Below are positions 11,615-21,779 of a stretch of DNA of 32,000 bases, in pieces. The notes below the pieces were generated by a model, which saw only the letters and a program-made list of their open reading frames with translations, was not told the DNA's origin and searched no databases. A program made the position numbers and the translations under genes. The stretch comes from Sinorhizobium meliloti (GTDB lineage: Bacteria; Pseudomonadota; Alphaproteobacteria; Rhizobiales; Rhizobiaceae): positions 930,001 through 962,000 of the forward strand of contig NZ_JAGIOS010000001.1 of assembly GCF_017876815.1 (NCBI RefSeq), given 5' to 3'. How positions within the stretch are numbered: the stretch's first letter is position 1; every line of letters starts with the position of its first letter.

Positions 11615-12046
11615 TTGAGAGGAACAGGTCCGGTGCCGACATTCGAAGGCATTCTGGAGACCGCGCTTTACGCGGACGATCTCGACGAGGCCGAGGCCTT
11701 CTACGGAACGGTCCTCGGCCTTGAAAGGATCACCCGCGCCGGCAGCCGCCATGTCTTCTTCCGTTGCGGCGATGGCGTGCTCCTGATCTTCAACCCCGCG
11801 GAGACGGTGAAGCCGCCTGCACCGGGCGCACTTCCCGTGCCTCCGCACGGGACGAAGGGCAACGGGCACATGTGCTTCCGGGTCGCCGCCGAGGCGCTCG
11901 ACGGCTGGAAGGCGAAACTGGAGGCGGCCGGGGTCGAGATCGAGGCGGATATCCGCTGGCCGAACGGCGCCCGCTCCTTCTATTTCCGCGATCCGGCCGG
12001 CAACAGCCTGGAATGCGCGGAAGCGGGCCTCTGGGCCAAGGATTGA
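11615..12046 (+). CDS. VOC-family protein (glyoxalase/bleomycin-resistance/dioxygenase fold)
   Basis: ILETALYADDLDEAEAFYGTVLGLE...GHMCFRV...WKAKLEAAGVEIE...ARSFYFRDPAGNSLE is a typical single-module VOC pattern. The start is uncertain: TTG at 11615 or GTG at 11633. Confidence 0.75.
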   Translation: MRGTGPVPTFEGILETALYADDLDEAEAFYGTVLGLERITRAGSRHVFFRCGDGVLLIFNPAETVKPPAPGALPVPPHGTKGNGHMCFRVAAEALDGWKAKLEAAGVEIEADIRWPNGARSFYFRDPAGNSLECAEAGLWAKD

Positions 12047-12732: not shown

Positions 12733-13914
12733 ATGCAGATAGCCCCGCTTTCAGCGATCGGTGACGGCATGGACCCCGGTTTCGGGGTCTATGTGCACTG
12801 GCCCTTCTGCGCGGCGAAATGCCCCTATTGCGACTTCAATAGCCATGTGCGCCATCAGCCGGTGGATCAGCCTCGCTTCGTCGCCGCATTCCTGAAGGAA
12901 ATGGCCGCGGTGCGCGCGCTTTCCGGTCCGAGAACCGTCACCAGCATTTTCATGGGCGGGGGTACCCCGTCTCTGATGGACCCTCGGACGGTGGAGGCGA
13001 TCCTCGACGGCATTGCCCGGCAGTGGCACGTGCCTGATGGCATCGAGATCACCATGGAGGCGAACCCGTCCAGCGTCGAGGCGACGCGCTTCCGCGGCTA
13101 TCGGGCGGCCGGCGTCAACCGCGTCTCGCTCGGCGTACAGGCTCTCAACGACCGTGACCTCAAATTTCTCGGACGGCTGCACGATGTCGAGAATGCGCTG
13201 AAGGCGATACGGCTCGCGCGCGAGATCTTTCCGCGCATGTCCTTCGACCTTATCTATGCGCGGCCGAACCAGACGGTCGAGGAATGGGAGCGGGAGCTGA
13301 AGGAGGCGGTTTCCTACGCCGTCGATCATCTGTCGCTCTACCAGCTTACCATCGAGGAAGGGACGCCCTTCTACGGCCTGCACAAGGCAGGGAAACTCGT
13401 CGTTCCGGATGGCGAGCAGTCGGCGGTTCTCTACGAGGCCACGCAGGAGATCACCGCTGATATCGGCATGCCGGCCTATGAGGTCTCCAATCATGCCCGG
13501 CCGGGGGCCGAGAGCCGGCACAACCTCACCTATTGGCGCTACGGCGACTATGCGGGCATCGGCCCCGGCGCCCACGGGCGGCTGGCGATCGGATCAGGCA
13601 AGATCGCGACCGCAACCGAGCGCAACCCGGAGGCATGGCTGCAACGCGTCGAAGAGTGCGGCGAAGGCCTGGTCGAGCGGGAACTGCTCGATTTCGAGGC
13701 GCAGGCCGATGAGCTTTTGCTGATGGGGTTGAGGCTGCGCGAAGGCGTCGATCTCGCCCGCTGGCAGACCCTCTCGGGCCGCGATCCGGATCCGGCCCGG
13801 GAAGAATTCCTGATCGAGCATGGTTTCATCGAGCGGATCGGCAATTCTCGGCTGCGCTGCACGCCCGCCGGAATGCTGATCCTCGACGCCGTGGTGGCCG
13901 ACCTCGCCTGCTGA
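12733..13914 (+). CDS. hemW: Radical SAM heme chaperone HemW (HemN-like, oxygen-independent coproporphyrinogen oxidase family)
   Basis: It has the radical-SAM CxxxCxxC motif in VYVHWPFCAAKCPYCDFNS, then GGGTPSL and the HemN C-terminal domain. Its size (393 aa) fits HemW/YggW rather than HemN. ATG 12769 is an alternative start. Confidence 0.9.
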   Translation: MQIAPLSAIGDGMDPGFGVYVHWPFCAAKCPYCDFNSHVRHQPVDQPRFVAAFLKEMAAVRALSGPRTVTSIFMGGGTPSLMDPRTVEAILDGIARQWHVPDGIEITMEANPSSVEATRFRGYRAAGVNRVSLGVQALNDRDLKFLGRLHDVENALKAIRLAREIFPRMSFDLIYARPNQTVEEWERELKEAVSYAVDHLSLYQLTIEEGTPFYGLHKAGKLVVPDGEQSAVLYEATQEITADIGMPAYEVSNHARPGAESRHNLTYWRYGDYAGIGPGAHGRLAIGSGKIATATERNPEAWLQRVEECGEGLVERELLDFEAQADELLLMGLRLREGVDLARWQTLSGRDPDPAREEFLIEHGFIERIGNSRLRCTPAGMLILDAVVADLAC

Positions 13915-13930
13915 TCGCGGGCCGAGCGGC

Positions 13931-14797
13931 TCAGCCGCCTTCCTTCACCGGTGCGACGATCCCCCAGGTAACTCCAAAGGGATCCCGGAGCTGGCCGTAA
14001 TGGTCGCCCCAGAATGCGATCTCCAGCGGCATCGTCACCTCTGCGCCGGCCTCCACCGCCCGATTCCACCAGAAATCAGCGTCGTCGACGACGAGGTGCA
14101 GCACGAAGCCCTCCGGCGGCTTCCAGGGATGGCCGAATTCCGGGAAAGGATCGTTCAGCATCAATGCGCCGCCATTGATCGTCAGGTGGCAGTGGATGAG
14201 GCGCTTTCCATCCTGGGCATGTTTGCGGTCCTCCTCCTTGGCGCCGAAAGCGCGGACATAGAAGGCCGCCGCCGCATCTGCATCCTCCACGTTGAGATAG
14301 GCGATGACGCCGGGCATGGGCGGGCGCGACGGCGCTTGCCAGTCGACCTCGGACCGGGGATCGAGATCGATCGCCGCCTTGAAGCTTCCGTCCATGTAGA
14401 AGGGGACGGATTCGTGCTGATGGGCGATCTTCCATCCCCTGTCGGTGCGTGTCAGGCCCAAGGTCAGGCGATACCAGAGCGCCGCCTTCTGGCCATCGTG
14501 CTTCTCGCCGGAAAGATGCGTCAGCGCAGTGGCGAAGGCGACGTCGCCGCTCACCGAAACGTCGAGCTCCTCGAGGGTGAAGCCGAGCGGCCCTTTCCAC
14601 GTGGAAAACCACTGCTCAAGGCCGCCGGCATCTGCGTCGGAAGCCTTGAGGGGGGGCGCCAGCGAAAAGACGAGGCAATCTTCCGTGCCGTGGGCGAGGA
14701 CGCGGGCGGCATCCTTCCGGCGCAGCGCCTCCGCCCAGTCCCCGATTACCTCCTCGATCTCCGCAACGGCCGCATTCCTGCTCTCGGTAATGGTCAT
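13931..14797 (-). CDS. Two-domain protein: N-terminal NTF2-like (SnoaL/DUF4440-type) fused to a C-terminal VOC (glyoxalase/PhnB-like) domain
   Basis: Residues 1-135 (IGDWAEALRRKDAARVL...ALWYRLTLGLTRTDRGWKIAHQHESVPFYMD) follow the SnoaL-like/ketosteroid-isomerase-like pattern. Residues about 160-288 (VIAYLNVEDADAAAAFYVRAFGAKE...HCHLTINGGALMLND...WGDHYGQLRDPFGVTWGI) follow the PhnB-type VOC pattern. The start is ATG 14797 with a GGAGGA ribosome-binding site, 15 nt after the upstream gene. Confidence 0.75.
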   Translation of the reverse strand: MTITESRNAAVAEIEEVIGDWAEALRRKDAARVLAHGTEDCLVFSLAPPLKASDADAGGLEQWFSTWKGPLGFTLEELDVSVSGDVAFATALTHLSGEKHDGQKAALWYRLTLGLTRTDRGWKIAHQHESVPFYMDGSFKAAIDLDPRSEVDWQAPSRPPMPGVIAYLNVEDADAAAAFYVRAFGAKEEDRKHAQDGKRLIHCHLTINGGALMLNDPFPEFGHPWKPPEGFVLHLVVDDADFWWNRAVEAGAEVTMPLEIAFWGDHYGQLRDPFGVTWGIVAPVKEGG

Positions 14798-14812
14798 GAC
14801 CCGGTCCTCCTC

Positions 14813-15295
14813 TCAGAGTTTCGCAACGAGCGTCGCAAGCTGATCGGCGCATTGGCCCCAGCCCTCGTGGAAGCCCATCTTCTCATGGGCATCGCGGTCC
14901 TCGACGCTCCAATGGAGCGCGCGGGCCGTATAGCGGGTCTTGCCGCCCTCGTTCTCGAAGGTCATGACCGCCGTCATGAACGGCTTCTCGGACGGCTTCC
15001 AGGCTTCCGTAAAGGCATCGGTGACGACGATCTTCTCGTTCGGCACGACTTCCAGATAGACGCCCTGATTAGGATAGAGTTCACCCTCGGGCGAACGCAT
15101 GACAAAGCGGTTGGTGCCGCCCGCCCTGACGTCGAGCTCCGCTTCCGTGATCGTCCACGGCAGAGGAGCGAACCACTGCTTCAGAAGCTCGGCTTCCGTG
15201 AAGGCCCGGTAGACCTTCTCGCGCGGGGCATCGATCAGCCGTGTCAGAACCAGTTCGCGTTCGCCGCCGGAATTGGTGTCGGTCGCTGCAGTCAT
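14813..15295 (-). CDS. SRPBCC-family protein (Aha1/AHSA1-like, activator of Hsp90 ATPase homolog domain)
   Basis: These are the last 160 codons of ORF 14813..16006. ELVLTRLIDAPREKVYRAFTEAELLKQWFAP...VMTFENEGGKTRYTARALHWSVEDRDAHEKMGFHEGWGQCADQLATL matches the AHSA1/SRPBCC pattern. The start is ATG 15295, with GGAGGA eight nucleotides upstream. Confidence 0.8.
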   Translation of the reverse strand: MTAATDTNSGGERELVLTRLIDAPREKVYRAFTEAELLKQWFAPLPWTITEAELDVRAGGTNRFVMRSPEGELYPNQGVYLEVVPNEKIVVTDAFTEAWKPSEKPFMTAVMTFENEGGKTRYTARALHWSVEDRDAHEKMGFHEGWGQCADQLATLVAKL

Positions 15296-15327
15296 TTTCG
15301 AAATCCTCCATGTTGGTTCATTCCAAG

Positions 15328-15354
15328 GACGAAGGAGGATGCCGCCTGCCGACA
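15328..15354 (-). promoter_or_regulatory. Candidate ECF-sigma-dependent promoter P2, upstream of the SRPBCC and NTF2::VOC genes
   Basis: The minus strand reads CCC-TGTCGGC-aggcggcatcctcc-TTCGTC-CT: TGTCGG (15354-15349), a 17-nt spacer, then CGTC (15331-15328). It lies 32 nt upstream of ATG 15295. The architecture is identical to the site at 17037-17063. Confidence 0.55.
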
Positions 15355-15369
15355 GGGGCCAGAAAAAAT

Positions 15370-16641
15370 TTATCGCTTTTCTTCTTCCGCGACCGTCGCC
15401 GGCTCGGCCGCGAGGTGATCGAGCTGCATGCGGATATAGGCCGCTTCGGACGCGTTGGTGGCCAGTGCGATCGCCCGGTCGAAGGCGGTGCGCGCCTCGC
15501 ATGCCCGGCCGAGCTGCTTCAAAAGGCCGCCGCGCAGGCCGTGATAATAGAAATAGCCGGAAAGCCTCTCCCCAAGGGGCTCCACCATCGCCAGTGCGGC
15601 CTCCGGTCCCTCGCGTTTCGAGACCGCGACCGCGCGATTGAGCGTGACGACCGGCGAGGGCTGCAGGCGCTCGAGCGCCTGGTAGAGGAGGTCGATCTCC
15701 TCCCAATCCGTCTGCTCCGGACGTTCGGCGCGGGCATGCAGGGCCGCGATTGCTGCCTGTATCTGGTAGGGACCGGGGCGGCGATGGCGCATTGCTTTGT
15801 CGATCATCGCCAGCGCCTCGGTGATCATCGGCCGGCTCCAGAGCCGCCGATCCTGATCTTCGAGCAGGACGACGGCACCATTGGCATCGAAGCGCGCGCG
15901 GGCGCGCGAATGCTGGAGCAGCAGAAGCGCCGTCAGCCCCATCATTTCCGGCTCGGCGGGAAACAGCCGCAGCAGCAGCCGCGACAGGCGGATCGCCTCG
16001 TCGCAAAGATCGGCGGAGACGCCCTCGGGGCCGTTCATCGCCGAATAGCCCTCGTTGAAGACAAGGTAGATCATCGTCGCGACCGCTGCGAGCCGCTCGG
16101 CGCGATCGACGGCATCGGGTGTCTCGAACGGGATGCCGGCGGCTGCGACGCGGGCCTTGGCGCGGGTGATGCGCTGCTCCATCGCCGCTTCGCTGACGAG
16201 AAAGGCACGGGCGATCTGCCTGACGGAGAGCCCCGATACGATGCGCAGTGCAAGCGCGATCTGCTGGGTTGCCGGAAGCGCCGGGTTGCTGCAGACGAAG
16301 AGCAGCCGCAGGATGTCGTCGCGGTAATGCGCCCCGTCGAGGCGATCGGCGAGTTCACTCTCCCGGTCGTCGAGATCGGAGAGCAGTTCCTCCGGCGGCA
16401 GTGCCGTCTCGCGCGACTGCCGCCGCACCTTGTCGATGCCGCTGTTGCGGCCGACGAAGATGAGCCAGGCGGCGGGATCGCGCGGCGGACCGGTGCGGGG
16501 CCAGTTTTTCAGCGCACGGATACAGGCCTCCTGGAACGCCTCCTCCGCCAGATCGAGATTGCGAAAGTAACGCAGCAGCGCACCCATTGCCTGCGGCCGC
16601 GCGGAAACAAGAGCAAGATCGATCCAGCCTGTGTCGGTCAT
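15370..16641 (-). CDS. ECF-family RNA polymerase sigma factor with a long C-terminal extension (COG4941/DUF6596 type, ECF42-like)
   Basis: Region 2 is LDLAEEAFQEACIRALKNWPRTGPPRDPAAWLIFVGRNSGIDKVRR. Region 4 is PATQQIALALRIVSGLSVRQIARAFLVSEAAMEQRITRAKARV. About 250 further residues follow, including the FNEGY motif (MIYLVFNEGYSA) and helical-repeat-like sequence. Its ATG overlaps the stop of the upstream YCII gene (ATGA at 16638-16641). Confidence 0.88.
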   Translation of the reverse strand: MTDTGWIDLALVSARPQAMGALLRYFRNLDLAEEAFQEACIRALKNWPRTGPPRDPAAWLIFVGRNSGIDKVRRQSRETALPPEELLSDLDDRESELADRLDGAHYRDDILRLLFVCSNPALPATQQIALALRIVSGLSVRQIARAFLVSEAAMEQRITRAKARVAAAGIPFETPDAVDRAERLAAVATMIYLVFNEGYSAMNGPEGVSADLCDEAIRLSRLLLRLFPAEPEMMGLTALLLLQHSRARARFDANGAVVLLEDQDRRLWSRPMITEALAMIDKAMRHRRPGPYQIQAAIAALHARAERPEQTDWEEIDLLYQALERLQPSPVVTLNRAVAVSKREGPEAALAMVEPLGERLSGYFYYHGLRGGLLKQLGRACEARTAFDRAIALATNASEAAYIRMQLDHLAAEPATVAEEEKR

Positions 16642-17012
16642 GAGGGCAGCTCACCGGGTTTATAAAGCGCGAGCGGCCGGACCTCGTAGGAGCCCGTGCT
16701 CGGATTGGCGTTACTCAGATCGCGCGCGAAGTCGAGCGCCTCATCCAGCGAGGCGCAATCGATCAGATAGAAGCCGAGCAACTGTTCCTTGGTCTCGGCG
16801 AAGGGGCCGTCCATGACGATCGTCTCGCCGGCGCTGTGGCGCAGCGTCGCCGCCGCCGTCGTCGGCACCAGGCGCGCGACGGGCCCCAGCTTGCCCGCTT
16901 CGACATATTTGCGTTGGACGGCGCTCAGATCACGCATGACCCTCTCGTCCTCCTCCTTGCTCCAGGCACTGGTGACGCTTTCATCGTTGTAGCAAAGCAC
17001 GGCGTAAAGCAT
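16638..17012 (-). CDS. YciI/YCII-family protein with the DGPF signature
   Basis: The 124-aa protein reads MLYAVLCYNDES...TIVMDGPFAETKEQLLGFYLIDCASLDEALDFA, which is the DGPF-type YCII-related domain. The start is ATG 17012, with GGAG seven nucleotides upstream. Confidence 0.88.
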   Translation of the reverse strand: MLYAVLCYNDESVTSAWSKEEDERVMRDLSAVQRKYVEAGKLGPVARLVPTTAAATLRHSAGETIVMDGPFAETKEQLLGFYLIDCASLDEALDFARDLSNANPSTGSYEVRPLALYKPGELPS

Positions 17013-17036
17013 TGAAAATCTCCGCTCTGGTCTGAA

Positions 17037-17063
17037 GACGAATGGCGCTATTGATAGCCGACA
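17037..17063 (-). promoter_or_regulatory. Candidate ECF-sigma-dependent promoter P1, upstream of the YCII-sigma pair (putative autoregulation)
   Basis: The minus strand reads GCT-TGTCGGC-tatcaatagcgcca-TTCGTC-TT: TGTCGG (17063-17058), a 17-nt spacer, then CGTC (17040-17037). It lies 24 nt upstream of ATG 17012 and just downstream of the dnaA terminator. Confidence 0.55.
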
Positions 17064-17087
17064 AGCGGGGCGAAAAAAACGCTCAAC

Positions 17088-17109
17088 AAAAAAGCCCGGC
17101 GGACCGGGC
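17088..17109 (-). terminator. Rho-independent terminator of dnaA
   Basis: The minus strand reads GCCCGG-tccg-CCGGGC followed by TTTTTTG. It begins 26 nt after the dnaA stop codon. Confidence 0.7.
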
Positions 17110-17135
17110 TTTCGTAACGTCGGGCTTTCCTGCCT

Positions 17136-18659
17136 CTATTCGTTGATCAGTCGCTTCAAAAGCTCGATCTCGTGGCTGAGCTTGGTGTCGGCAGAAATCA
17201 GTTCCTCGATCTTGCGCACAGCATGGAGCACGGTCGTGTGGTCGCGCCCGCCGAAGCGGCGGCCGATCTCGGGGAAGGAGCGCGGGGTCAGTGTCTTCGA
17301 CAGATACATGGCGATCTGGCGCGGCTTGACGATGACGCGGGTGCGGCGGTTGGAGACCAGCTCCTGACGCGAGACATTGTAATGCTTGGCGACGACGCGC
17401 TGGATATCTTCGATGCGGACGCGGCGCGGTTCCCCGGCATTGACGAGATGGCCGAGCAGTTCGTCGACCCGCTCGATCGAAAGCTGCGGCTCGAAGGAGC
17501 GGCGGAAGAGAAGCTGATTGAAGGCGCCCTCGAGTTCGCGGCCGCTGGCTGTCACGTTGCGGGCGACATGGCTCAGTATCTCGAGCGGAATCTCGAGCGA
17601 GGCATCGTCCTGGCGCGCCGCTTCGAGACGACGCTTCAGCATTTCCAGGCGCATCTCGTAGTCCGGCCCTTCCATCTCGATCGCCACGCCGCCTTGCAGG
17701 CGCGAGCGAACACGGCTGTCGAGCGATTCCAGCTCCCAGGGTGCACGGTCCGCGGCGACGACCACCTGCTTGGCGGAGTCGAGCAGCATGTTCAACAGAT
17801 GGCAGAACTCGTGCTGGATCGACTTGCCCTGCAGGAACTGCATGTCGTCGATAATGAGAAGGTCGATGTTGCGAAGCGATTCCTTCAGCGACAGCGCGTC
17901 ATTGTCGCGGATCGCCGTTGCGAAACGCCACATGAAATATTCGGCCGTCAGATAGACGACGCGTGGCGCGCGCGCACTCTGGAGGGCCGCGAGAGCGATC
18001 GCCTGCAGAAGATGCGTCTTGCCGAGACCAACGCTCGAATGGATGAAAAGCGGATTGAAGCGCACGGCGCCGGCGCCGGCCTCGGCAATCGTACGCGCTG
18101 CCGCGAGCGCGACCCGGTTCGACGAGCCCTCTACGAAACTATCGAAACCGTAGCGCTGATCGAGCGGCGAGCCGAAAAGCGGCGCCTGGACGGGTCTCGC
18201 CGGAGCTGCCGCAACCGCAGCGGCGGCAATTGCCACGGTGGGGGCCGCCGAACGGCGGGAGGGAGGGACGACCGCCGCTTCGGCAGCCGCGGCAACGCTC
18301 TCTTCAGGAGCCGTCGGGCGATGACCGCGGGTCGCGGTGCGCACGAGGATCTCCACCTTCAGTATCTCGCTGTCCTCCTGCTGGACGAGCGTGGTGATCA
18401 GATCGAGATAGCGATTATTGATCCAGGACTTCAGAAAAGTCGTCGGGACCGAGAGGCGCACGACGCTTTTCGACACTGAATGGAGCTTGAGGCGTCCAAA
18501 CCAACTTGCGAAGACATCCGGACCGACCTGGGCTTTCAAGCGCGCACTTACCCGCTCAAACAGTGCGTCATGCCGCATGTCGTGTTTTTCCCCCGCCGCC
18601 TGAGACTGATTGCTTCCGGCCTGAAAACCTCCAGGTGCCGTCGCCAAATTCATCCGCAT
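17136..18659 (-). CDS. dnaA: Chromosomal replication initiator protein DnaA
   Basis: Domain I is [26 protein letters not shown]. The AAA+ Walker A is [11 protein letters not shown], and Walker B is [11 protein letters not shown]. The domain IV DNA-binding signature is [37 protein letters not shown]. The start is ambiguous: the maximal ORF begins at 18749, ATG 18659 has the best SD (GGAAGG, N7), and ATG 18578 gives the shortest conserved N-terminus. Confidence 0.95.
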
Positions 18660-19189
18660 CTTGCCGCCTTCCAATTTCATTATTCCGATGCCGTCATTTC
18701 TGGCGGCCTCATCTTTTATGCCCGCCCGCCACGGCCGCTCGAAAGCCATGCCGCGTCAGCCGGACGCTCTGATACGCACCGAACCGGGCTCCTCATATCC
18801 CGCCACGGCACGCTGCGCTCATTCGCTTGCCTTCGCCTCAAGCAAATGTCCCCTCGCACTTCGCCTTACCGATTCTGCACGGCTCTTTTCAAGCCGACCG
18901 GAACCGTTTTTCCTCGTTGCCGGCTGACCGCACCCTCGTACGTAGCGGACAGCCCGAGCCTCCTTCTTCCTGCTCCAACGCATTCACAAGGCTAAGCCCT
19001 GCCGGCAACCACAAGACGAAACGTCCTCGCTCCGGTGCGAAGGCTCGCCCGGTTTTATCGTCTCGACTTGTTTGATTGATCGACGTGGAATTAACCCCGC
19101 CACAGGCGACGGAAAGCCCAAAGTCACCCCGATTGGAATGACCCTTAAACTTCCTCGTACAGATGTAATCTGTGTCCCCTGTGGAAGGC

Positions 19190-19218
19190 ATTTAGGCAGG
19201 ATCGCCCGGCAAGATCAA
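19190..19218 (-). promoter_or_regulatory. Candidate sigma-70-type promoter in the rpsT-dnaA spacer (would give a leader longer than 500 nt)
   Basis: The minus strand reads TTGATC (19218-19213), a 17-nt spacer, then CTAAAT (19195-19190). This is a motif match only. Confidence 0.2.
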
Positions 19219-19528
19219 TCGCGTTTTTTACCCGCCCGTAAGCGTCGACAGTTGACTCTCGTGCCGGGTTTTGCATCCCGCTCCCCGAGTCCGGCGAGAA
19301 TCCCTGTTGAATCAAGGGTTTTGTTTTTTGCGTTCTTGCTTAGCTGGCGAAAAAGAAAAAAAATAAAAAATGGCTTGACTCACTTCGGACTCAATCCGCC
19401 CGCCCCGCCAGACCACATTTTTGCCGCAACCTCTCATAAGCTATTGAAAAGCTTAGAATTTTTTTGTCACGGGATTGACACGAGCGTGGCAAGGTCAATC
19501 GCGCAGGCCGTTGGCGGCGGCACGAATC

Positions 19529-19554
19529 GGAAAAGCCCGGCGAAAACGCCGGGC
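19529..19554 (-). terminator. Rho-independent terminator of rpsT
   Basis: The minus strand reads GCCCGGCG-tttt-CGCCGGGC followed by TTTTCC. It begins 31 nt after the rpsT stop codon. Confidence 0.75.
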
Positions 19555-19584
19555 ACTTCATCAACAGCTTTTTTCTTAGCCGGG

Positions 19585-19851
19585 TTAGGCCGAAAGGCTC
19601 TTCACGCGCTGCGCCAGTCGCGAGACCTTACGCGATGCCGTGTTGGAATGCATTACGCCCTTCGTGGCGGCGCGCATCAGCTCCGGCTGTGCCGCCTTCA
19701 GGGCGGCGGCTGCGAGTGCCTGATCGCCGGAAGCGATCGCCTCTTCGACCTTGCGGACGAAGCTGCGGATGCGCGAACGACGGGCCTTGTTCACTGCGGT
19801 ACGGCGTGCGATCTTGCGGGTCGCCTTTTTCGCCGAAGTTGTATTGGCCAT
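19585..19851 (-). CDS. rpsT: 30S ribosomal protein S20
   Basis: Lies in ORF 19585..19917. From ATG 19851 it reads [39 protein letters not shown]..., which is canonical S20 (88 aa). Confidence 0.95.
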
Positions 19852-20042
19852 TGATGCCTCTCTTCGAAAACTGACATGGACTCCGCCTCGCCGTGCCGGG
19901 TCACTGCGACCTGTCATACAAGCAATTCGGGAGTATTATCGGAAAGCCTCGAACGAGGGCGTTCCAAACTGAGGGCGGCGTATAAAGGGAAACCGCCCGC
20001 ACGTCAACGCGCAATTTGAGAAAACCGAGTCCTGTCCATGGC

Positions 20043-20816
20043 TCATCTGTGTTTGAATTCGGCTTTGCGCTTGGCGACGAAGGCGGCCATGCCCTCTTTC
20101 TGGTCCTCCGTTGCGAAAAGCGACTGGAAGAGCCGCCGCTCGAAGCGCAGGCCCTCGGCGAGCGTCAGTTCCAGAGAGCGGTTGACGGCCTCCTTGGCTA
20201 TCATCGCCGCCGGCAGCGAGAATGACGCGATCTTCTCCGCGGCGCCGAGCGCCTCCTCCAGGAGCCTGTCCGGAGCCACCACGCGCGAAACCAGCCCGGA
20301 GCGCTCCGCCTCCGCCGCGTCCATCATGCGGCCGGTGAGAATGAGGTCCATGGCCTTCGCCTTGCCGACTGCGCGGGTCAGGCGCTGCGATCCACCCATG
20401 CCGGGAATGACGCCAAGCGTAATCTCCGGCTGGCCGAACTTCGCCGTTTCGGAGGCGATGATGAAGTCGCACATCATGGCGAGCTCGCAGCCACCGCCGA
20501 GCGCGAAACCGGATACGGCGGCGATCATCGGTTTGCGGGCGTTCGCGACATGCTCCCAGCCGCCAAGGAAATCGGCGAGGTAACCGTCGACGAAATCGAG
20601 CCCCTGCATCTCCTTGATGTCGGCGCCGGCGGCAAAGGCCTTCTCGGAGCCGGCAAGGACGATGGCGCCGACGGCCCTGTCGGCGTCGAAGGCCTTCAGC
20701 GCGGCATCGAGCTCGCGCATCAGCACCGCATTCAGCGCATTGAGCGCCTGCGGACGGTTGAGCGTGATCAGGCCCACGCGGCCCTGCGTTTCGACCAGCA
20801 ACGTCTCGTAACTCAT
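20043..20816 (-). CDS. Enoyl-CoA hydratase (crotonase family, short-chain mitochondrial-like)
   Basis: [16 protein letters not shown]...[15 protein letters not shown]...[24 protein letters not shown]...[21 protein letters not shown] are the canonical crotonase motifs. It corresponds by position to the gene I recall being called fadB1 in the S. meliloti dnaA region. Confidence 0.9.
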
Positions 20817-20873
20817 TCCCCATCTCCTTCACGCGTTGTCGGAAGATTGAAGAGCGGAATGTGCCATGCCGCC

Positions 20874-21779
20874 CTATTTCTGGCAGTGCGGACAGTAAAA
20901 AGTCGAACGTCCCGCCTGTACTATGCGGGCGACCGTACCGTGGCAGCCGGGCGTGCGGCAAGCCTCGCCTTCCCTGTCATAGACGGAGAAGCTGTGCTGG
21001 AAATAGCCGAGACTGCCGTCCGCCTGAATGTGATCCTTGAGCGAGGAGCCGCCGGCGGCGATCGCATCGGCAATCACGGCGCGGATCCTTTCCGTCAGCG
21101 CGATCAGCGCCTGTTTCGGGCGGCCCCGCTTGTCGACGAGCGTGCCTGCCGACCTTTTCGGCGAGAGGCCCGAGCGCCACAGCGCCTCGCAAACATAGAT
21201 ATTTCCGAGCCCCGCGATCGTCCTCTGGTCGAGAAGAGCGGCTTTCAGCGGCTGGATCTTGCCGGCGAAACGGGTGGCGAGATAGGCGGCATCGAGGGCA
21301 TTGCCGGTCGGCTCCTCGCCGAGGCCGCGGAGGAAGACGTGGTCGGCGAGCGCAGAGCGCCGTGCCAGATCCATGAAACCGAAGCGACGCGGATCGTTAT
21401 AGATCACCCGTGCCGGCCCGGAGCCGCCATCGAGATGGAAGACGACATGATCGTGCTTCTCGTCCTTGCCGCGCGGGTGGTGGAAAGCGCCGGGCGTGGC
21501 CGGATCCGCACCAGCCTCTATCGGGCCCTTCTCGATCCGGAACGAGCCGGACATGCCGAGATGGGCGATGATGACGTCGCCGCCCTCGAGCTCGATCATC
21601 AGATATTTGGCGCGCCGCGAGAGGGCGATGATCCGGCGGCCCGCGACCGCGTTCGCGAAATTCTCGGGGAACGGAAAGCGCAGATCCGGCCGGCGCAACT
21701 CCGCCCGCACCAGAAGCGCACCCTCCATCGTCGGCGCCAGTCCGCGCTTGACCGTTTCCACCTCGGGCAATTCCGGCAT
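20874..21779 (-). CDS. mutM: Formamidopyrimidine-DNA glycosylase
   Basis: It has the N-terminal [14 protein letters not shown] catalytic motif, the H2TH region ([20 protein letters not shown]) and a C-terminal zinc finger (CRTPGCHG...STFYCPHCQ). Confidence 0.95.

Follow-up and report, generated by a model that had tools for sequence, protein, structure and literature searches.

The ECF42 group is a very large group of extracytoplasmic function (ECF) sigma factors, no member of which has a known inducing signal or physiological role. Two reviews (PMC8999054, PMC9023288), drawing on Liu et al. 2018 and Wu et al. 2019, describe the Streptomyces venezuelae ECF42 proteins SVEN_0747, SVEN_4377 and SVEN_7131 as a sigma2-sigma4 core followed by an extension of about 200 residues that ends in tetratricopeptide repeats (TPR) and is required for activity; their genes are accompanied by no anti-sigma gene and by a neighbouring YCII/DGPF gene. 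The extension is likewise described as essential in Xanthomonas, and its sigma4-proximal part as contacting sigma4 (PMC8999054, PMC9023288). The reviews give no identified partner for the TPR part and suspect the neighbouring YCII protein (PMC8999054, PMC9023288). Here we describe the locus of the sigma factor RpoE10 in a 32-kb stretch of Sinorhizobium meliloti DNA (hereafter the window, to which all coordinates refer), which resembles the S. venezuelae loci in its sigma architecture, in having no anti-sigma gene and in its YCII/DGPF neighbour. The gene anatomy was taken from a list of open reading frames (ORFs) and from the minus-strand sequence. The locus had been singled out beforehand from its letters alone as an ECF42-like module (the original prediction), and the question raised there, what signal and what role such sigmas have, is a real one.

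We consider it very probable that the rpoE10 locus encodes a cytoplasmic, anti-sigma-less ECF42 sigma that acts at TGTCGG-N17-CGTC promoters, with an autoregulated YCII-sigma pair and a cargo that varies by lineage. The identity of the locus rests on exact matches. The sigma matches S. meliloti entries at 100% identity, and all four proteins of the module have exact counterparts among them, the NTF2::VOC fusion being Q92KR9_RHIME by exact-sequence look-up. The two 39-nucleotide (nt) promoter strings published by Lang et al. 2018 (PMC6180224) are found on the minus strand of the window with 39/39 matches, that of SMc01149 at 15319-15357 and that of SMc01151 at 17037-17075. Hence the locus is S. 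meliloti rpoE10, SMc01151-SMc01150-SMc01149-SMc01148, the same locus as that of Lang et al. with no sequence difference, and on sequence grounds the window is placed on the S. meliloti chromosome near 0.40 Mb. The rpoE10 locus is thus already known and experimentally characterised in S. meliloti; its anatomy had been read correctly but is not a discovery. The statement that rhizobial ECF42 sigmas are uncharacterised does not stand, since Lang et al. assigned S. meliloti RpoE10 to its group, overexpressed and deleted it and mapped its promoters (PMC6180224), nor does the statement that the group has been examined only in Streptomyces, since Pseudomonas putida ECF-10, a Xanthomonas campestris member and RpoE10 itself have also been studied. 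As the locus is published, the novelty claims of the original prediction were wrong.

In S. meliloti Rm1021, ECFfinder assigns RpoE10 to ECF42, with a long TPR-bearing C-terminal domain and no anti-sigma (PMC6180224), and the group-42 assignment was repeated under the 2021 reclassification (PMC10880074). Microarrays of cells overexpressing RpoE10 (log fold change 4.9) gave log fold changes of 1.60 for SMc01149 and 1.85 for SMc01148, and of 1.26 and 1.12 for SMb20475 and SMb20474, a second target operon that lies on pSymB and outside the window (PMC6180224). The transcription starts of the targets map behind ECF42-type -35/-10 motifs, that of SMc01149 (SMc_TSS00874) being the G at 15319, and according to Lang et al. 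the motif matches the promoter predicted for ECF42 (PMC6180224 and its supplement). The deletion of rpoE10-SMc01151 made by Lang et al. covers SMc 400,979-402,620 (PMC6180224), and a separate SMc01150 deletion was made in PMC9561847.

The sigma gene, rpoE10 (SMc01150; 15370-16641, minus strand; Swiss-Prot Y370_RHIME, R00370), encodes 423 residues. Pfam finds sigma region 2 at residues 15-77 (16411-16599, minus strand; Sigma70_r2, 1.8e-12) and region 4 at residues 121-164 (16150-16281, minus strand; Sigma70_r4_2, 6.5e-9), with no region 3, and the protein scores 56.7 bits against NCBIfam TIGR02937 sigma70-ECF (cutoff 42.9). The C-terminal extension, residues 183-411 (15409-16095, minus strand), starts with DUF6596 (residues 183-284, 2e-34), which carries the FNEGY motif (VFNEGYS), and continues as TPR-like helical repeats; a TPR_21 match at residues 365-411 (4.5e-4) lies below the Pfam cutoff. 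AlphaFold2, run on an alignment of 39 sequences from two ECF42 clades, gives a model with an all-helical C-terminal region, in which the mean predicted local distance difference test (pLDDT) score of 10-residue blocks across residues 231-390 is mostly 90-96 (range 77-96), and a disordered sigma2-sigma4 linker at residues 76-111. For the C-terminal part of the model, Foldseek against the PDB gave matches to the TPR proteins Tom70, consensus TPR, Pex5 and OGT; for the N-terminal part the matches were sigma H and sigma E, ECF sigmas solved in complex with RNA polymerase. The template modelling (TM) scores were modest, 0.3-0.5, as expected for repeat proteins. A phmmer search of the PDB with RpoE10 gave nothing at E <= 0.01. 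The RpoE10 family comprises 3,679 clusters at 50% identity (E <= 1e-30). RpoE10 therefore carries the marks of ECF42, namely regions 2 and 4 only, a TPR-bearing extension, no adjacent anti-sigma, a YCII neighbour and the promoter of the group. The predicted make-up of the sigma, a sigma2/sigma4 core with an FNEGY/TPR-like extension, was borne out by Pfam, AlphaFold2 and Foldseek, and the ECF42 assignment is supported by the anatomy, the YCII partner, the promoter motif and the published ECFfinder call (PMC6180224).

By the ORF list and Pfam, RpoE10 is encoded within a run of four co-directional minus-strand genes for a YCII/DGPF protein, the ECF sigma, an AHSA1/SRPBCC protein and a SnoaL_3::VOC fusion. 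The run extends from 17012 to 13931 directly downstream of dnaA, and these coordinates, the ATGA overlap between the YCII stop and the sigma ATG, the 74-nt gap between the sigma and AHSA1 genes and the 15-nt gap before the fusion are all as originally read. The AHSA1 gene begins at an ATG preceded by a GGAGGA ribosome-binding site. A further 123 nt separate dnaA from the YCII gene and 16 nt separate the fusion from hemW. None of these gaps of 123, 74, 15 and 16 nt can accommodate an anti-sigma ORF, and no anti-sigma gene lies adjacent to rpoE10 in the window, where the neighbours of the module are dnaA and hemW, in agreement with what had been claimed.

Most ECF sigmas work with an anti-sigma and our search covered the 32-kb window, so RpoE10 could in principle belong to a conventional envelope-stress system whose membrane anti-sigma is encoded elsewhere in the genome. 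However, the defining traits of ECF42 are a regulatory extension at the C-terminus and the absence of an anti-sigma (PMC6180224, PMC8999054), none of the 80 orthologous loci described below has an anti-sigma-like gene in a coupled position, and the cargo encoded in the window includes no exported or membrane-bound protein. The phenotype of a strain that lacks all 11 ECF sigmas, including rpoE10-SMc01151, also speaks against such a system. This strain nodulates and fixes nitrogen, is nearly wild type across about 1,900 Biolog conditions and shows no envelope-stress phenotype with deoxycholate or sodium dodecyl sulfate (SDS); it has a subtle sensitivity to quaternary ammonium compounds, tetrazolium dyes, fluoroquinolones and bleomycin that is tied to no single sigma (PMC6180224). 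RpoE10 is dispensable for symbiosis and envelope stress, the rpoE10 locus does not contain a classical ECF sigma/anti-sigma pair, and we regard a distant anti-sigma as very improbable.

The three partners of the sigma all gave Pfam matches above threshold (YCII, AHSA1, SnoaL_3 and Glyoxalase), as expected from the original prediction. SMc01151 (16638-17012, minus strand; 124 residues; Swiss-Prot Y369_RHIME, R00369) matches YCII (PF03795) with 74.3 bits (cutoff 24; 1.1e-20), contains IVMDGPFAETKEQ and has the DGPF motif within MDGPFAETKEQ. Its closest solved structure is PDB 1S7I (PA1349, 3.9e-14), and this coupled partner of rpoE10 has neither an anti-sigma domain nor a transmembrane segment. 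SMc01149 (14813-15295, minus strand; 160 residues), a published RpoE10 target, matches AHSA1 (PF08327) with 129.9 bits (cutoff 22.1; 8.4e-38) and, among other PDB entries, 1XFS (1.7e-32, a 'conserved hypothetical protein') and 1XUV. SMc01148 (13931-14797, minus strand; 288 residues), which is co-transcribed with SMc01149, joins an NTF2-like SnoaL_3 domain (PF13474; residues 14-133, 89.9 bits, 2e-25; PDB match 3F7S) to a VOC/glyoxalase domain (Glyoxalase, PF00903; residues 168-278, 66.3 bits, 4.3e-18; PDB matches 1U6L and 3OXH). The full-length fusion is limited to about 17 protein clusters, mostly from Sinorhizobium/Ensifer, and in other genomes SnoaL_3 is fused to AHSA1 instead of VOC.

The target promoter of the group has TGTCGG as its -35 and CGTC as its -10 element. 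The window contains only two copies of TGTCGG-N17-CGTC (32-kb motif scan), and both lie in the expected gaps on the minus strand, one at 17037-17063, 51 nt 5' of the YCII start codon (P_SMc01151), and one at 15328-15354 inside the 74-nt sigma-AHSA1 gap (P_SMc01149). We compared this arrangement with 80 orthologous loci, taken from an orthologue alignment, whose sigmas are 70-95% identical and which come from Sinorhizobium, Ensifer, Shinella, Rhizobium, Neorhizobium, Phyllobacterium, Mesorhizobium, Bradyrhizobium-type and other genomes. The YCII gene is directly upstream of the sigma gene in all 80 loci, with the 4-nt overlap in 77. In 75 of the 80 the YCII gene has the motif some 50 nt in front of it, at 48-57 nt in most. 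Across 1.02 Mb, both strands counted, there are 149 copies of the motif compared with 1-8 in shuffled sequence, an enrichment of about 30-fold. The cargo is far more variable. AHSA1 is the first gene downstream of the sigma in 35/80 loci and none of the cargo families is directly downstream in 24/80. The AHSA1-NTF2-VOC array, and with it the complete four-gene set, is found in four loci, all Sinorhizobium/Ensifer. Conserved co-occurrence of all four genes thus failed as a general rule, whereas the YCII-sigma core (80/80) and promoter-linked cargo families are indeed conserved. Judged from this comparison, the conserved unit is the YCII-sigma pair with its own ECF42-type promoter, and the cargo set varies by lineage.

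The variable cargo, together with dnaA adjacency in only eight Sinorhizobium/Ensifer loci, could be taken to mean that SMc01149 and SMc01148 are independent neighbours and that the four-gene module is chance gene order beside dnaA. Against this, both genes are induced by RpoE10 and their mapped start lies behind an ECF42 motif (PMC6180224), which together with the motif linkage upholds the functional tie between sigma, SRPBCC and NTF2::VOC genes that had been proposed. The motif directly precedes AHSA1 in 35 loci, VOC in nine and NTF2 in four, and in Neorhizobium it is found before VOC genes that stand alone on the other strand, at a distance of 1.5-5 kb; DoxX_2, membrane-anchored SRPBCC, GST, SnoaL_2 and beta-lactamase-fold genes and extra YCII paralogues are preceded by it as well. 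Since the motif is found before cargo even where the cargo is dispersed, the cargo appears to be tied to the sigma by promoter and not by position. Given also the enrichment of the motif over shuffled sequence, chance gene order is already largely refuted and in our view scarcely credible.

Some further observations concern the composition of these loci. Directly downstream of the sigma, the first or second cargo gene is often one for a DoxX_2 membrane protein of 123-157 residues with the motif in front of it (loci L005-L008, L026, L033, L042 and L044); the S. meliloti rpoE10 locus has none. Two Ensifer loci contain a second, paralogous YCII-ECF42 pair, about 42% identical to the first (L007, 8430-10037; L008, 8975-10593), located between the first pair and hemW, the site occupied by AHSA1 and NTF2::VOC in S. 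meliloti. A stand-alone VOC/glyoxalase gene (11615-12046, plus strand; 143 residues) lies 2 kb away in the window, upstream of rdgB and hemW; no ECF42 motif precedes it and it is hence probably outside the RpoE10 regulon. In a metagenomic locus (L081, 3442-10309) an ArsR-type helix-turn-helix gene is followed by VOC (3-dmu-9_3-mt), AHSA1, AHSA1::SnoaL_3, DUF899, DUF1428, RibD_C, GST and YCII genes, which suggests that the same gene families travel together under different regulators.

These data can be assembled into a model for the rpoE10 locus. RpoE10 guides RNA polymerase to TGTCGG-N17-CGTC, and the copy in the 74-nt gap drives the SMc01149-SMc01148 operon, as has been published and in keeping with the sequence. 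By analogy with other ECF42 members, the extension of RpoE10 may be required for activity through contact with sigma4. The YCII gene is probably translationally coupled to the sigma gene, and the conserved promoter in front of it would place the pair under positive autoregulation once the sigma is switched on. A partner protein or a small molecule may serve as the signal and act through the TPR extension, possibly together with the YCII protein, and the cargo would supply accessory proteins of small ligand-binding or detoxification folds that act on a small molecule. The module may be one that senses or neutralises a small molecule.

Several points weigh against this model. Its autoregulation is contradicted by the sole overexpression experiment, in which SMc01151 was not induced; the mapped transcription start of this gene falls inside the motif (PMC6180224), and the motif is nonetheless conserved. 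The conservation sits uneasily with the published result. An excess of sigma mRNA of about 30-fold gave only about 3-fold induction of the targets (from the data of PMC6180224), no inducing signal is known for RpoE10, and the sigma has no assigned phenotype, the strain without all 11 ECF sigmas being near wild type and symbiotically competent (PMC6180224). The AlphaFold2 model of RpoE10 has only moderate overall confidence (mean pLDDT 74.9, predicted TM score 0.63), and the closest solved structures of the four cargo folds are all annotated 'hypothetical protein', with no known ligand or enzyme activity. Some of these points may be reconciled with the model. The small response to so much sigma mRNA suggests that most RpoE10 may be inactive without its signal, and if the SMc01151 promoter needed the signal or the YCII protein, both its non-induction and the motif in 75/80 loci would be accounted for.

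The last of these considerations leads to the question of whether the YCII protein SMc01151 is the real regulator. It would then bind to the TPR extension, acting as sensor, co-factor or anti-sigma-like partner, and would form a two-protein small-molecule sensor with RpoE10. The position of its gene upstream of the sigma in every locus and the nearly universal 4-nt overlap are the layout expected of stoichiometric partners, Lang et al. handled SMc01151-rpoE10 as one unit and deleted the two together (PMC6180224), and a review proposes a role for YCII, pointing to other ECF sigmas that have a fused YCII domain (PMC8999054). Furthermore, RpoE10 alone gave weak target induction and left its own promoter uninduced (PMC6180224). 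However, extra motif-preceded YCII paralogues in Bradyrhizobium-like loci fit an output rather than an input, and a scan of six family representatives of unusual length (494-573 residues) for an N-terminal YCII domain showed none to be a YCII::ECF42 fusion; their extra length is probably a gene-calling artefact. In Streptomyces, Liu et al. in 2018 reportedly described DGPF genes as targets. A regulatory YCII protein is thus possible, although somewhat unlikely.

A more specific version would make YCII the input of the ECF42 system: on binding a small hydrophobic or electrophilic compound, it would activate RpoE10 via the TPR extension, only then would the YCII-rpoE10 promoter fire, and the motif-linked AHSA1, NTF2, VOC, DoxX_2 and GST proteins would bind or neutralise the compound. 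If true, this would explain why the sigma alone does not induce the YCII-rpoE10 promoter, and the NTF2::VOC and AHSA1::SnoaL_3 fusions and the ArsR-led cluster of L081 would reflect one functional guild. We consider this chain of events, taken whole, unlikely and put it forward as speculation.

With regard to its surroundings, the module lies between dnaA (17136-18749, minus strand; Pfam Bac_DnaA 2.8e-65), directly upstream of the YCII gene, and the convergent hemW (12733-13914, plus strand), directly downstream of the NTF2::VOC gene. Just past the dnaA stop is a terminator-like hairpin with a T-run (17083-17105, minus strand; stem 17105-17093, then TTTTTTGTTGA in the terminator scan), which sets dnaA apart from the module. 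Adjacency to dnaA, with insertions of up to about 2.2 kb, occurs in 8/80 loci, and no DnaA-box cluster and no CtrA-type TTAA-N7-TTAA site were found in the window. Because of the missing sites, the rarity of the adjacency and the hairpin, we rejected a functional tie to dnaA or replication; the dnaA adjacency is incidental. The Swiss-Prot entries Y369_RHIME and Y370_RHIME, which are early-style entries, fit the guess that these genes are the two unassigned ORFs downstream of dnaA in the original R. meliloti dnaA description.

The dnaA ORF comprises 537 residues from its first ATG while its orthologues align from an internal start near 18581, so that this ATG is probably not the true start, which would lie further downstream. 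Between dnaA and rpsT is a spacer of about 830 nt (18750-19584) with no long ORF and no Rfam match; in the microarray annotation, probes in the SMc01152-SMc01167 spacer are labelled 'sRNA' (PMC6180224 supplement). Further upstream of dnaA, translations identify rpsT (S20), an enoyl-CoA hydratase gene and fpg/mutM with N-terminal PELPEVE (19585-21779, minus strand); this order would be the 'unusual gene arrangement' that Margolin et al. reportedly described for R. meliloti dnaA in 1995. Across the window Rfam reports no RNA element at gathering thresholds, and a promoter scan of 13700-17400 found no sigma-70-type promoter. ARAGORN called a tRNA-Arg(CCG) at 14078-14174 on the plus strand, which is almost certainly a false positive, since the call covers 97 nt on the antisense strand of the conserved NTF2::VOC ORF and Rfam sees no tRNA there.

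Collectively, the results over the 80 loci are modest refinements of what was published. The conserved ECF42 promoter before the YCII gene argues for an autoregulation that was unseen in the published overexpression, and the motif-linked cargo families narrow what a chemical screen for the inducer should seek. Beyond what Lang et al. 2018 (PMC6180224) published, they add the conservation of the YCII-sigma core, and of the motif in front of it, over 80 Rhizobiales-type loci in which the cargo varies. The S. venezuelae sigmas are actinobacterial paralogues, and the rhizobial local regulon differs from theirs by adding AHSA1, NTF2, VOC and DoxX_2 genes. P. putida ECF-10 is an ECF42 member that Lang et al. 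place in a genomic context like that of RpoE10 (PMC6180224). Unlike with RpoE10, its knockout is reported to alter stress and antibiotic resistance as well as biofilm formation (Tettmann et al. 2014, as cited in PMC6180224 and PMC8999054). A parallel outside the group is provided by ECF41, with M. tuberculosis SigJ and S. meliloti RpoE9, which like RpoE10 are anti-sigma-less and have a fused regulatory C-terminal domain and a tiny local regulon (PMC6180224, PMC9023288). The ECF41 extension, however, is a SnoaL-like (NTF2) domain and not DUF6596/TPR, and its promoter motif differs, whereas at the rpoE10 locus the NTF2 fold is found in the cargo.

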